Assembly (NCBI GenBank): GCA_963815215.1
Contig: CAWFFU010000003.1
Coordinates: 864,001-928,000, forward strand
Direction of reading: 5' to 3'
From: an uncultured Trueperaceae bacterium
GTDB taxonomy: Bacteria > Deinococcota > Deinococci > Deinococcales > Trueperaceae
Length of the DNA: 64,000 nucleotides
The notes under the pieces are model-generated. The model was not told the origin of the DNA, made no database searches, and was given only the letters and a program-made list of their open reading frames with translations. Shown one piece after another: positions 2,297 to 11,056 of the stretch (position 1 is its first letter; each line of letters begins with the position of its first letter). The position numbers and the translations under genes were made by a program.

Positions 2297-2998
2297 ATGT
2301 CGACCCTCAAAGCCCAAACCCTCCATCCTTCGGCCTGCGAACCCGCGGCTCCGGTTCCCGAAACGCTGGCCCTGCCGACGCGTACGTTGGAGCCTGGGCA
2401 GGTGTTGTTCGAGGCGGATCGTGAGGCGAGCAACCTGTACGTGGTGAACTTCGGGGTGCTGAAGGCGGTGGTGCCGACCAGTCTGGGTCGGGATCGTATC
2501 GCCGATCTGTACGGCGCCGGGGACGTGCTCGGTTTGAGCGCGTTGGACGGCGGTCTGCACGCCGAGACGGTGATCGCGGTGCACGATGCGTGCCTCACCC
2601 CGATCGATCCGAAGCAGGCGATGAACGATCGCAGCTTGCGTGATTACGTGCTGCGCAGCCTGGCGCGGCAGTTGCGGCGTTCCCGCGAGATGCTGGACGA
2701 AGCCGAGATGCCGGTCGGTGCGCGCGTCACCCGCGCGTTCCTGCGCTTGGCGCGGCAGTTCGGGCAGCCCAGCGACGGGGCGTCGTCGGCGGACGGCATC
2801 GAGGGCGGCGTGAAGCTGCCGCTGGCGTTGACGCATGAGGATCTGGCGGATCTCACCGGCTCGAGCCGGGTGACCATCACCCGCATCCTCGGCGAGCTGC
2901 GGTCCGACGGCGCTCTGGAGGGCACCCGCGGCGTGTACGTCGCCAACCTCGAGGGGTTGGAGCGCGCCACCGATCACTACGTCATGCAGGTGCTCTGA
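2297..2998 (+). CDS. Crp/Fnr family transcriptional regulator
   Basis: cNMP-type N-terminal domain and HTH LTHEDLADLTGSSRVTITRILGEL; RBS AAGGGAGG before ATG 2297. Confidence 0.88.
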   Translation: MSTLKAQTLHPSACEPAAPVPETLALPTRTLEPGQVLFEADREASNLYVVNFGVLKAVVPTSLGRDRIADLYGAGDVLGLSALDGGLHAETVIAVHDACLTPIDPKQAMNDRSLRDYVLRSLARQLRRSREMLDEAEMPVGARVTRAFLRLARQFGQPSDGASSADGIEGGVKLPLALTHEDLADLTGSSRVTITRILGELRSDGALEGTRGVYVANLEGLERATDHYVMQVL

Positions 2999-3025
2999 CC
3001 CAGCGCCCGCTATCCCGCTCGCTCT

Positions 3026-3058
3026 GCACCGCCCCGGCCACGAAGGCCGGGGCGGTGC
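3026..3058. terminator. GC-rich hairpin between convergent genes (probable bidirectional terminator)
   Basis: GCACCGCCCCGGCC-acgaa-GGCCGGGGCGGTGC, 14-bp perfect stem; no long U tract. Confidence 0.6.
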
Positions 3059-3097
3059 TCGTTGGGACCGGCCGCCGCGACGGGGCCACGGCGAAGC

Positions 3098-7018: not shown

Positions 7019-8293
7019 ATGACCGTCCTCCGCACCGCCGAAGTGCTCGCCGTGGGCACCGAGCTCCTGCTCGGCGAGATCGACGACACCAACAGCGCCG
7101 AGCTCGCCCGGAGCCTGGCGCAGCACGGCGTCGACGTCTACTGGACTCAGCGCCTCGGCGACAACCTCGAGCGCCTTCGCGCCGCCATCGATCGCGCCCT
7201 CGAGCGCAGCGACCTGGTCGTCCTCACGGGCGGGCTGGGTCCCACCGACGACGACCTCACGCGCGACGCCGTCGCCCTGGCGGCCGGCGAGGCCATGACA
7301 CTCGACCCGGAGCTGGAGCGCTGGCTGCGCCAACGCTTCGCTTCGCGCCGTCGGCCCATGCCCGAGCGCAACCTGCGCCAGGCCATGCGCATCCCGTCGG
7401 CGCGGGCGCTGGACAACCCCATCGGGACGGCACCCGGTTGGCTGGTGACACTGTGGCGCGCCGGTGACGAGCGGACGGTGGTGACCCTTCCCGGGCCACC
7501 GCGCGAGATGCGCCGCATGTGGCAGTCCGAGGCCCTGCCGCGCCTGACGTTCGCGGCCAGCGCTCTGTACACCCGCACCATCAAGACCCATGGCGTGGGC
7601 GAGTCCGACGTGGCCGAGCGGCTAGGGGAGTTGACGCGGGGCGCCAACCCCAGCGTGGCGACCTACGCCAAGCGTGACGGCGTCCACGTACGGGTGGCCG
7701 CCAAGGGCACCAGCGCCGAAGAGGCCCGCCGTCGGGCCGCTCCGACCGAACGGGAGGCGCTCACACGGCTCGGCGACAGCGTCTGGGGCTTCGACGACGA
7801 CGCCTTGCCCGTCATGGCGATCGAGCGCCTGCGCGCCTCTGGCCTGCGCCTGGCGTTGGCCGAGTGCGCCAGCGGCGGATCCCTGTCCGAGCTGCTGAGC
7901 GGCGTCCCCGCCGTCGAAGAGGCGCTCGCGGGCGCCGTGATAGCATGGAACGCGGATAGCATGGCAACGCTCGGAGTGGCCACAGATCTGTTGGCAAGGC
8001 TTCCCGCCGCAGCCGCGGAGGTGGTTGCGGCGCTGGCGGTAAGCGTCCGTGCGCTATTCAATGTCGACTATTCGATCGCCGTCGGTCCCGCCCTGCTGCT
8101 GCAGGACGGCGATCCCGGCGACGCATCGCGACCGGATGGGAACGAAAGCGCGGCAACGCGTGTGGTGATCGCCGTCGCCGGACCGAACGGCACGACCGTC
8201 GATACGTTGACCTTCCCGCCACTCGGGCGGGCGTGGCTCCGCGAGCGGCTCGCCTTCACCAGCCTCTTCCTTCTCCGGTCCGCCCTGAGGTAG
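7019..8293 (+). CDS. cinA: Competence/damage-inducible protein CinA (molybdopterin-binding-like domain plus degenerate PncC domain)
   Basis: [31 protein letters not shown] and LPGPPREM motifs; upstream of recA. Confidence 0.9.
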
Positions 8294-8345
8294 CGGCGGG
8301 CGCGCTCCGGTGCGCCCGTACGCCGTCGGAGAGGTGGAGCGAGCT

Positions 8346-9389
8346 GTGATAGACGAGCAGCGTAGGAAGGCCCTGGATACTGCTATCTCGCAGATCGAGC
8401 GTCAGTTTGGTAAGGGCGCGGTGATGCGTTTGGGGGAGGAGCAGGTTCGGTTGTTGGGGGCGGGTGTGATTTCGACGGGGTCGTTGTCGGTGGATCTGGC
8501 GTTGGGGGTGGGGGGTGTGCCTCGGGGTCGGGTGGTGGAGGTGTATGGGCCTGAGGCTGGGGGGAAGACGACGTTGGCGTTGCATGTGGTGGCGGAGGCG
8601 CAGGCGGCGGGGGGTGTGGCGGCGTTCGTGGATGCGGAGCATGCGTTGGATCCGTCGTATGCGCGGGCGTTGGGGGTGGATATCGAGCAGTTGTTGGTGA
8701 GCCAGCCGGATTCGGGGGAGCAGGCGTTGGAGATCGTGGAGTTGTTGGTGCGGTCGGGCGCGGTGGATGTGGTGGTGATCGATAGTGTGGCGGCGTTGAC
8801 GCCGCGCGCGGAGCTCGAGGGTGAGATGGGGGACGCGCATGTGGGGTTGCAGGCGCGGTTGATGAGTCAGGCGTTGCGGAAGTTGACGGCGGTGTTGTCG
8901 AAGAGTCGGTCGACGGCGATTTTCATCAATCAGGTGCGGGAGAAGATCGGGGTGTTGTACGGCAATCCGGAGGTGACGCCGGGGGGGCGGGCGTTGAAGT
9001 TCTATGCGAGTGTGCGTATGGAGGTGCGGCGTAAGGGGGATGTGAAGGTGGGCGCGGAGAAGGTGGGGAACCGCGTGCGGGTGAAGGTGACGAAGAACAA
9101 GGTGGCGCCGCCTTTTCGGGAGGCGGAGGTGGAGATCATGTTCGGTCGGGGGATCGATCGGGTGGGGGATCTGGTGAATGTGGCGAGTGATGTGGAGGTG
9201 GTGCAGAAGTCGGGGTCGTGGTACTCGTTCGGGGAGACGCGGTTGGGGCAGGGCAAGGAGAAGACGGTTGAGTTCCTGAGCCAGAACCCGGACGTCCTCA
9301 AGGACATCCGAGAACGCGTCATGGATGAGCTGAAACGAGGCGGCCGCGCTCCCGGCGCCGGCCCCTCAGGCGAGGACGGTGAAGCGTGA
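8346..9389 (+). CDS. recA: Recombinase RecA
   Basis: [46 protein letters not shown] and KNKVAPPF motifs; start GTG 8346 (alternative 8310). Confidence 0.98.
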
Positions 9390-11056
9390 GCGCGCTGGTC
9401 TGGATCCTACTCATCGTCGTTGCCGCAGTCGCCGGCCTGCTGGTGGGGGTCACGACGCGGCGCAACCGCGAGGCGGACATCGCCCGGCAGGCCGAGGAAG
9501 CGGCGGCCGCCCGGCTCGCCGAGGCCGATCAGGAGGCGCAGCGCGTCCTCGACAAGGCGAGCCGTGAGGTGCAACAACGGGCCGCCGGCGAGCGCCAGCG
9601 CTGGGAGGACGAGGAGCGTCGCTCCCGCACCCGGCTCGAAGAGGACCTCGCCCGTGCGCGTCAGCTGGCCGATCAGGATATCGCCCGCGCGCGCGAGGAT
9701 GTCGACCGGGAACGCAACGAGATCAAAGGCGCGCGCGAGGACATGCGGCGCGACCGTGAGAAGATCGAGCAGCTCGAGGAACGGCTCAACCGTCGCGGCG
9801 AGCAGCAGGACGCCCGGGCAGTGCGTCTCGACGAGACCGAGGAGCGTCTGGACACCCGTGAGGCCGACCTGCGCGCACGCGACGAAGCGCTGGCGGCTCG
9901 TCAGTCCGAGGTGGACACGCAGCTCCACGAGATCGCGCAACTCAGCCGCGAGCAGGCCGCGGAGATGATCCTGGAACGCGTGGAACGCGAGCTCGAGCGC
10001 GAGAAGGCGGTCCGCGTACGGGCGGCGCTCGAACGCGCCGACGCCGAGTCCAAGCGCAAGTCCTACGACATCGTGGCGCAGGCCATCCAACGCAGCGCCT
10101 CCGAGGTCTCCGCCGCCATCAGCGTCTCGGTGGTTCCGATCCCCAGCGACGCCATGAAGGGGCGCATCATCGGTCGCGAGGGCCGCAACATCCGGGCGTT
10201 CGAAGCGCTCACCGGCGTCGATCTGATCATCGACGACACCCCCGAAGCGGTGCTCCTGTCGAGCTTCAACCCGCTGCGGCGCGAGGTCGCCACGCTAGCC
10301 CTCAGCGAGTTGGTGGCCGACGGCCGCATCCACCCCGCGCGCATCGAGGAGGTCGTTCAGAAGGCCCAGCAGGACATGCAGGCCTACATCCGCGAACGCG
10401 GCGACGAGGCCGCGCTGGAGACCAACGTGGTGGGGCTCAAGCCCGGCCTGTTGCAGCTCCTGGGGCGCATGCACTTCCGTACCAGCTACGGCCAGAACAT
10501 CCTCAAGCACTCCGTGCAGGTGGGGCACCTGACCGGCATCATCGCCTCCGAGCTGGGTCTCGACGCGGCCATGGCGCGGCGAGCCGGGTTGCTGCACGAC
10601 ATCGGGAAGTCGATCGACCGCGAGATCGAGGGGACGCACACCGAGATCGGTGCCAACCTGGGACGTCGCTTCGGAGAGCCGCGCGAGGTGATCGATGCCA
10701 TGGCGCACCACCACGACCTCGACCAGGCCGAGACCCTCTTCCCCATCATCGTCAACGCGGCCGACGCCATCTCCGCCGCCCGACCGGGTGCCCGCCGCGA
10801 GACGCTCGAGAGCTACCTCAAGCGCCTGGAGGGCCTCGAGAACATCGCGACCAGCTTCCCCGGCGTGGAGAACGCCTACGCCATCCAGGCCGGCCGCGAG
10901 ATCCGCATCATCGTCGAGCCGGACAAGGTCAACGACGCCTCTGCGGTGCTGCTGGCACGCGACATCGCCAACCGGATCGAGCAGGACATGGAGTACCCCG
11001 GTCAGGTGCAGGTGACCGTGGTACGGGAGTCGCGGGCCGTCGAGTACGCGCGCTAG
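9386..11056 (+). CDS. rny: Ribonuclease Y
   Basis: N-terminal TM, coiled coil, KH domain ([12 protein letters not shown]), HD domain (LLHDIGK), ARPGAR. Confidence 0.96.

Follow-up and report, generated by a model that had tools for sequence, protein, structure and literature searches.

The core of recA in a Trueperaceae bacterium is probably a skewed repeat homogenised by gene conversion

Results

The recA locus and its wobble code

The recA gene of an uncultured bacterium of the family Trueperaceae (Deinococcota; GenBank assembly GCA_963815215.1, here genome G000) lies on the forward strand of contig CAWFFU010000003.1 (C3), between cinA and the RNase Y gene rny, in a stretch of 64,000 nucleotides (positions 864,001 to 928,000) that we call the window and whose coordinates are used unless a contig is named. 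The central ~950 bases of this gene are an example of GRINS, a described and mechanistically unexplained kind of skewed repeat, and the recA core is very probably a GRINS copy that gene conversion keeps homogeneous with a second recA elsewhere in the genome.

An earlier sequence-only reading of the window had reported a G/T-rich, C-poor recA core, and this proved real. The interval 8390–9270 holds 432 G, 185 T, 137 C and 127 A (GC skew +0.52, TA skew +0.19, GC 0.65), against GC skews of −0.03 in cinA and 0.00 in rny, and the hand counts on which the reading was based were exact on recount, both for 8461–8520 (G32 T17 C8 A3) and for rny 10081–10140 (G17 T11 C24 A8). The G+T fraction of the core is 0.90 at third codon positions, compared with 0.65 at first and 0.51 at second positions, and none of its 293 codons ends in A. 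Third positions of the two neighbouring genes together have C at 0.50 and G at 0.37; in rny alone they read A 0.05, C 0.51, G 0.38 and T 0.05, with first-position T at 0.06. First-position T in the recA core is raised to 0.16, from an ordinary 0.06–0.08, because leucine is written TTG in 23 of 26 codons, a codon that takes a share of 0.07 among leucine codons genome-wide. Aspartate is GAT 11 times and GAC once (genome share of GAC, 0.80). The C-ending codons left in the zone are mostly ATC, TTC, TAC and GGC, and stand at sites that are conserved across the genus.

Against a genome-wide standard deviation of GC skew of 0.079 (33,119 windows of 400 bp in the 3.32-Mb genome), recA windows reach +0.55. 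The scan for similar islands that the sequence-only reading had called for returned only about ten regions beyond |0.3| in 400-bp windows. The sharp boundaries that it described stood at the 3′ side, where the code stops inside the gene after the codon ending near 9262, but not at the 5′ side, where the change is gradual over about 8352–8390. Coordinates are collected in Table 1. An open antisense frame within recA was rejected as an overlapping gene: such a frame follows automatically from G/T wobble positions, and its product would be low-complexity sequence of R, H, P, Q and L.

Table 1 Features of the recA locus in the window
Feature	Position	Strand	Description	Basis
recA copy 1	8346..9389	+	347 codons plus stop; likely start GTG at 8346; the stop-to-stop frame opens further upstream	Open reading frame list, Pfam, alignment with copy 2
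Repeat unit (very probable GRINS copy)	8352..9299		948 bp, 100% identical to the recA copy 2 core on contig C8 (reverse strand there)	Self-BLAST, pairwise alignment, GRINS criteria
G/T wobble zone	8390..9262	+	Inside the repeat unit; third positions A 0.00, C 0.09, G 0.75, T 0.16	
recA 3′ end, ordinary composition	9263..9389	+	Third-position C 0.51; copy-1-specific tail from about 9300	
cinA	7019..8293	+	Upstream neighbour, control; GC skew −0.03	
rny (RNase Y)	9386..11056	+	Downstream neighbour, control; GC skew 0.00	

A second recA copy and concerted evolution

Self-BLAST matched window 8349–9331 at 99.4% to C8:78351–79333 (99.4–99.5% across comparisons, over 980–983 bp). The two recA copies are 100% identical over the 948 bp of the repeat unit, including the first ~37 bases past 9263, then run into differing C-terminal tails, and identity is lost past 9331. 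The ATG of copy 2 aligns one codon downstream of the copy 1 start, and the two products differ only in their first residues and their C-terminal tail. Both copies are predicted to encode full-length RecA: copy 1 matches the Pfam RecA profile (PF00154) over positions 1–262 of 262 (E = 1.3e-134) and the RecA_C profile (PF21096) with E = 5e-21, and both profiles are matched by the products of both copies.

The copy-1 tail (ending GEDGEA) is present in G000, G003 and G002, and the copy-2 tail (...ELQLGKQVH...DAALEA) in G000, G003 and G004, with similar tails in G009 and G006. As copy-specific tails are common to sister species, the duplication predates those species; as the cores are nevertheless identical within each genome, the pair evolves in concert. 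Paralogous cores are 100% identical within G000, within G003 (over 943 bp) and within the single-contig genome G012 (over 972 bp), while each tail type has its orthologues in other species. From one species to another, 12 to 36 of 263–280 same-residue core codons differ synonymously. In fragmented relatives, contigs end within recA and leave it in two N-terminal and two C-terminal pieces. Judged by these alignments, the recA duplication appears older than the genus, with cores apparently kept identical by ongoing gene conversion.

In the ~50 bases upstream of the copy 2 start codon there are 3–4 tandem copies of a ~13-base unit (GGCACGAGTCGSC-like), and nothing like it lies upstream of the window copy.

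tuf and other skewed genes of the genome

The same code, in a stronger form, is used by the two tuf copies on C3, which are 100% identical over 1224 bp (the coding sequence plus 4–5 nt at each end) and have third positions of A 0.00, C 0.03, G 0.67 and T 0.30. Phenylalanine is TTT 12 times and TTC never (genome share of TTC, 0.99), isoleucine ATT 18 times against ATC twice, leucine TTG in 24 of 27 codons, and histidine CAT 12 times and CAC never. At four-fold sites of one copy (C3:568993–570207), the next codon starts with G after 33 of 44 T and after 76 of 169 G (Fisher p = 0.0004); the choice of T at these sites looks like the breaking up of long G runs.

Single-copy genes carry the code or its mirror image. 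An amino-acid-type ABC ATPase gene (C3:748365–749147) is G/T-coded in its central ~600 nt, and its closest paralogue (68% protein identity) is ordinarily coded. An NAD-dependent epimerase gene (C3:836467–837578), which we take to resemble UDP-sulfoquinovose synthase (SQD1-like), has the exact mirror code, with codons ending in C or A (third positions C 0.77–0.80, A 0.11–0.12, G 0.08–0.10, T 0–0.02; GAA 14 against GAG 4, CAA 16 against CAG 4, leucine CTC in 38 of 41 codons), and this mirror code is conserved within the genus. The epimerase frame in G000 shifts by one base near L035:1998 (the gene being L035:1468–2579) and is intact in relatives, which may reflect a sequencing error or a broken gene. 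C/A-ending codons were also found in a neuB-like gene and its neighbour (C12:5150–7743) and in a gene at C11:194691–195881 that has no Pfam match and lies near a restriction-type locus; third positions in these C12 and C11 genes have G at 0.17–0.20 and T at 0.02–0.08.

A period-3 scan of G+T across the genome flagged 41 regions, 12 of them on 8 strongly skewed loci. Nine further regions were inspected, and low-complexity or repeat-protein regions and spurious antisense frames among them were dropped.

Distribution among relatives

Relatives were sampled as a set of 30 genomes, with the genus represented by 10 genomes including G000; the nearest named RecA records belong to two metagenome-assembled genomes labelled Trueperaceae, at 80–81% RecA identity. 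The comparison with related recA genes that the sequence-only reading had proposed showed the code and boundaries to be the same in all eight genus genomes with a measurable recA (GC skew 0.41–0.48; of the other two, one yielded a fragment only and one no match). Elsewhere in the family, two genera have recA GC skews of 0.35 and 0.46 and four genera of 0.05–0.14, and in 12 genomes of four other families the range is −0.07 to +0.15. Across 106 recA loci, third-position G+T is 0.79–0.87 in this lineage (12 loci) and 0.33–0.62 in the other 94. Among the sampled relatives, a skewed recA was found only where flanks have a GC content of at least 0.66.

tuf is G/T-coded in all five genus genomes from which it was recovered (third-position C 0.01–0.05), less strongly so in several other genera and two other families, and ordinary or C-rich (third-position C 0.45–0.72) in other relatives that also keep two identical copies, G012 among them.

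These contrasts separate the code from conversion. Concerted evolution or biased conversion with a second recA sharing the interval was one of four explanations offered by the sequence-only reading, and its first part held: the second copy exists and the tails are orthologous across species. Conversion does not, however, explain the composition. Conversion alone does not make the skew, because G012 has identical recA and tuf pairs with ordinary third positions, nor is it necessary for the code, because single-copy genes carry the same or the mirror code. Gene conversion is thus neither sufficient nor necessary for the skew.

A pressure on nucleotides

As the sequence-only reading had suspected from valines at positions that are usually isoleucine, the bias reaches the protein. 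Compared with 13 high-GC relatives without the bias, 53 RecA columns differ, of which 31 gain G or T at codon positions 1–2 and 10 lose it; replacements in the G/T direction include Ile>Val in seven columns and Asp>Glu in four. In the tuf product, 30 columns gain and nine lose (binomial p about 0.001 for recA and for tuf). That amino acids are shifted in the same direction as silent sites argues against tRNA choice, and the pressure acts on nucleotides.

The direction of change could be followed in the ABC ATPase gene: G000 and G008 show the code strongly and G002 and G005 in part, whereas G003, G004 and G007 lack it. In the G000/G008 lineage, 42 third-position changes could be polarised, of which 25 are C>G, 15 C>T and 2 G>C. 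By this comparison, the gene appears to have been caught acquiring the code gradually within the genus. C is removed directionally, to G at four-fold sites and to T at two-fold sites and in CTG>TTG; A is removed at third positions, and the effect is limited to certain segments of genes. Four-fold sites of recA vary within the genus mostly between G and T, with A never seen. In ordinary genes of the genus, the commonest four-fold difference is between C and G (33–68 of 69–109), in both directions. Synonymous codon differences between species amount to 0.09–0.16 in recA, compared with 0.27–0.35 in cinA and rny.

Composition of highly expressed genes and of the chromosome's two strands

The same composition in most highly expressed genes of this genome, which the sequence-only reading had named as refuting it, was not found: ribosomal-protein genes, fusA, rpoB and rpoC have third-position GC skews of only −0.21 to +0.09.

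The sign of the code was compared with the chromosome-wide skew. Eleven extreme open reading frames were listed, of which eight were assigned to real genes, two were antisense frames and one is an unverified frame. In seven of the eight assigned genes, the G/T-rich strand is the chromosome's G-rich strand. With the epimerase gene and the two C12 genes added by hand, 10 of 11 genes fit this polarity (two-sided binomial p = 0.012), and with tuf and the C12 cluster each counted once, eight of nine do (p = 0.04). The recA partner copy on C8 fits, as do both copies of a secreted repeat-protein pair on C3 and C4. Ordinary genes also differ by orientation: mean third-position G+T is 0.490 where the sense strand is the chromosome's G-rich strand and 0.437 in the other genes.

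Discussion

Relation to GRINS and other known systems

GRINS were described in 2021 in polyketide-synthase modules (Nivina et al.; PMC8256042) and are defined as duplicated regions of more than 500 bp, with more than 80% identity to another region and mean |GC| and |TA| skews above 0.15 (150-nt windows, step 30). Here, three of the 12 duplicated regions of the genome lie above these thresholds: the recA pair (980 bp, mean |GC skew| 0.50, |TA skew| 0.21, r = 0.40), the tuf pair (1224 bp, 100% identity, skews 0.52 and 0.22, r = 0.44) and secreted-protein paralogues (0.22 and 0.24). The genome mean of |GC skew| is 0.084, to be set against 0.50 in the recA pair; the TA-skew threshold discriminates weakly in this genome, where the mean is already 0.145 at 70% GC, and the net TA skew of 8352–9299 is +0.16. 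The third of these pairs, at C3:631398–632930 and C4:141093–142623 (89% identity), encodes secreted repeat-protein paralogues and is only moderately skewed.

The likeness extends beyond the thresholds. The recA and tuf segments share with GRINS their length and identity, positively correlated GC and TA skews that are strongest at third positions, an effect on amino-acid composition, the association with gene conversion and abrupt edges inside genes; this genome also has both G+T-rich and C+A-rich segments and occasional single-copy skewed regions, as described for GRINS. Genome-wide, GRINS were found mostly in transposases and in genes for 'replication, recombination and repair'; their authors call the mechanism unknown and propose that skewed sequence converts more readily (PMC8256042). 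Unlike GRINS as described, the skew here sits in two housekeeping gene pairs that are conserved over at least a genus and is not tied to diversification, and 10 of 11 genes agree in sign with the skew of the chromosome as a whole. The paper reports no such relation and describes both signs on a single strand. The main text of that paper contains no occurrence of recA, tuf or Deinococcota (PMC8256042; the supplement, which lists gene families, lay outside this check).

Conversion of tuf is itself familiar. The available part of a survey of concerted evolution reports it in 29 orders, including Deinococcus-Thermus, and the abstract counts 26 genes with long-lasting concerted evolution; recA has no occurrence in the main text of the survey as available (PMC6053082). 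As in the known concerted evolution of tufA and tufB, the tuf copies here stand in different operon contexts and are identical over the coding sequence, and recA behaves likewise over its core. They differ from plain tuf conversion in being skewed, and relatives with converting, unskewed pairs show that the two phenomena are separable; in the parts of the concerted-evolution literature that were available, no link between conversion and a skewed codon alphabet was found. Literature searches on Truepera and recA codon use, GT-rich DNA and RecA, Rho and skew, and tuf concerted evolution returned, in the portions of sources available, no description of a G/T-coded recA.

Replicating chromosomes commonly show a strand asymmetry in which the leading strand is G/T-rich, and vertebrate mitochondrial DNA is also strand-asymmetric. 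The genes described here resemble such asymmetry in that G and T are over-represented at silent sites of one strand, with the mirror image on the other strand and a sign that fits in 10 of 11 genes. They differ in that the skew is about ten times larger (0.5, against a chromosomal 0.02–0.06 per 20 kb), is confined to segments of ~0.6–1.4 kb with edges inside genes, and includes one repeat copy in the opposite polarity. Replication-associated asymmetry is mentioned in the GRINS paper (PMC8256042).

Origin of the code

Taken as a whole, we lean towards an account in which the recA core is a conversion-homogenised GRINS copy whose skew is written by a separate, strand-polar process at the nucleotide level and then exported by conversion. 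Both recA cores use a two-letter wobble alphabet, taking G where this is synonymous and otherwise T, almost never C and never A. The direction of the skew may arise at the level of the DNA strands, through a process with a polarity relative to replication or recombinational repair, a step that we put forward tentatively; candidates would be the repeated exposure of one strand in single-stranded form or a strand-biased correction of mismatches in heteroduplex, either of which could leave one strand G/T-rich. Gene conversion would then copy the code into the partner copy and maintain it there, and such export would account for the window recA being coded despite its opposite polarity. A strand-polar process with conversion export is the origin that we favour, at modest odds that leave it short of probable. 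A stricter form, in which skewed segments follow a rule that places their G/T-rich strand on the G-rich (probably leading) strand of the chromosome and in which copies of the wrong polarity exist only through conversion from a partner of the right polarity, seems to us doubtful. If it were true, the skew of GRINS would be written on one strand by a replication- or repair-polar process and exported by conversion, which would make for a testable mechanism, and the ABC ATPase gene, with its 25 C>G, 15 C>T and 2 G>C changes, would be a natural time series of that process.

Localised strand-specific mutagenesis, another of the four early explanations, is favoured in part by the polarity result; the window recA lies in the opposite polarity. 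That copy, with its G/T-rich strand on the chromosome's C-rich strand, is the sole exception to the polarity, and it heads several points that weigh against our account. A purely replication-polar process acting on both recA copies should cancel under symmetric conversion, so that mostly one-way conversion from copy 2 would be needed. The polarity sample comprises few genes, and these are in part not independent, since paralogue pairs and one gene cluster are among them; between the two orientations, third-position G+T differs by 0.053 even in ordinary genes. At four-fold sites of the ABC ATPase gene, C>G (25) outnumbers C>T (5), which is not a plain deamination spectrum. fusA is unaffected although it stands beside tuf in one operon, and therefore neither transcription nor chromosomal position alone explains the sharp edges. 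Finally, G012 and three other relatives have identical tuf pairs without skew, and whatever makes the skew must therefore be lineage-specific.

Alternative explanations

The best-placed alternative, which we nonetheless judge improbable, is selection on single strands. In a genome of 70% GC, wobble positions limited to G/T or C/A would reduce self-pairing of both DNA strands and of the mRNA and make better RecA substrates for repair, conversion or transformation; the G/T strand is, moreover, of the kind that RecA prefers, and segments of this sort would be selected or would spread by a transmission advantage. This would explain both mirror codes and, among the sampled relatives, the restriction to high-GC lineages (flanks of at least 0.66 GC). 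Predicted folding energies of 540-nt pieces agree with it, at −0.32 to −0.40 kcal/mol/nt for G/T sense RNA and −0.21 to −0.24 for C/A, against −0.49 ± 0.05 in 25 ordinary genes, but weak folding follows from composition and gives no evidence of selection; similarly, the lower synonymous differences in recA (0.09–0.16, against 0.27–0.35 in cinA and rny) would arise from a strong bias of any kind. RecA is known to prefer GT-rich DNA and Chi-like sequences, and a preference for TGG-type repeats is given in the available part of one source (PMC3763553). In composition, the repeat's sense strand is of the character favoured by Escherichia coli RecA, a preference that the RecA of this lineage may not share. 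The GRINS authors' proposal of readier conversion for skewed sequence (PMC8256042) also speaks for selection on single strands, yet the identical unskewed recA and tuf pairs of G012 show that conversion works well without the code. Nor does selection on single strands predict that the sign of the code would be linked to the skew of the chromosome as a whole. The narrower form in the sequence-only reading, recA-specific self-regulation through the GT-rich preference of RecA, finds no support in that form: tuf and the ABC ATPase gene share the code, and other genes mirror it.

Slightly less probable again is selection on the transcript. A G/U-rich, C-poor mRNA might escape Rho loading, toxin RNases or structure-limited translation and so secure expression of recA and tuf when translation is impaired, with C/A-rich mRNAs being hypersensitive; a related version invokes codon-biased translation through particular tRNAs. 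Rho prefers C-rich, G-poor RNA. Both recA copies are coded along their sense strand despite their opposite chromosomal polarity, as transcript selection would have it, and Rho is encoded in the genome, although rho is also present in the control genomes and so has no discriminating value. The code covers only part of the gene in recA and in the ABC ATPase, and cinA, which lies upstream and reads in the same direction, has ordinary composition; a transcript that is C-poor only in part would be left unprotected. Pyrimidine-C dinucleotides are not avoided beyond composition (tuf, 59 observed against 59.6 expected; recA, 50 against 45.5), and ribosomal-protein genes, fusA and rpoBC are ordinary. 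Amino-acid replacements in the same direction are not predicted by tRNA choice, and the usual translational optimum favours TTC and ATC over TTT and ATT, to which the tuf counts (TTT 12 against TTC 0, ATT 18 against ATC 2) run opposite. The sign of the code tracks chromosome polarity, which selection at the RNA level would not predict. Efficiency of tRNAs or translation, avoidance of MazF-type RNases and a 'damage-proof template strand' were considered and set aside, as none explains the mirror-coded genes or the link to polarity.

Import of the core by homologous replacement from a donor with G/T-coded genes, the last of the early explanations, is very improbable, and as a recent event it conflicts with the presence of the code in all eight measurable genus genomes and with its gradual gain by the ABC gene. 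The sharp 3′ boundary inside recA would fit an import, as would the distribution of the ABC code, which is found in G000, G008, G002 and G005 but is missing from two genomes nearer to G000 by cinA identity, G003 and G004. The coded core has the same boundaries throughout those eight genomes and occurs in two further genera, however; RecA identity declines with relatedness as that of the flanks does; and no donor-like G/T-coded flanking genes were found among the 30 relatives. Sliding identity across the ABC locus reveals no foreign block (0.85–0.93 inside, 0.82–0.92 outside). A recently imported segment would differ from relatives' orthologues in both composition and phylogeny, and this was not found for the recA core.

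An artefact of assembly or binning (a chimeric join, or a collapsed or duplicated contig), which an assembly of 14 contigs with several overlapping contig ends might invite, is practically excluded by the different and ordinary gene contexts of the recA copies, the same structure in G003 and in single-contig G012, a composition that respects the reading frame in its third-position effect, and an independent metagenome contig that spans the 5′ junction without a difference. The chimerism at the boundaries that the sequence-only reading had named as refuting it was thus not found: independent genomes share the boundaries, the spanning contig (run X4, 505 nt, 0 differences) covers 7942–8446, and in X1 and X4 there are contigs that pass from the repeat into the tail of copy 2, at 9323 and 9331. 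The contig ends C1/C9, C1/C5, C11/C12, C14/C6, C6/C9 and C10/C14 overlap by 1–11 kb at 97–100% and look like unresolved joins or large repeats.

Implications and further observations

Here the GRINS signature is carried by tuf and by the gene for the recombinase itself, and it is conserved throughout a genus of Trueperaceae. One genome offers single-copy coded and mirror-coded genes, a gene acquiring the code and a possible link between sign and polarity, and related genomes add converting pairs with and without skew; these contrasts together make conversion separable from skew and disfavour translational explanations. Both recA and tuf often serve as phylogenetic markers; recoding of this kind can distort trees built from nucleotides and indices of codon usage, and the identical cores break short-read assemblies of these genomes. 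Two RecA proteins that differ in their first residues and C-terminal tail are also of interest for RecA regulation.

Two observations lie apart from the code. A non-coding tract of ~400 bp (C14:80842–81225), composed of C and T almost exclusively, has GC skews down to −0.79; it is situated near a contig end, upstream of a lipoprotein-like gene, and is unrelated to the codon effect. In the window, 718 bp of a Crp/Fnr-like regulator gene at 2365–3082 (C3:866365–867082) are duplicated at C10:264291–265008 with 99.86% identity; the composition of this duplicate is ordinary (mean |GC skew| 0.13), and it is a second converting or recent duplicate in the window, without skew.

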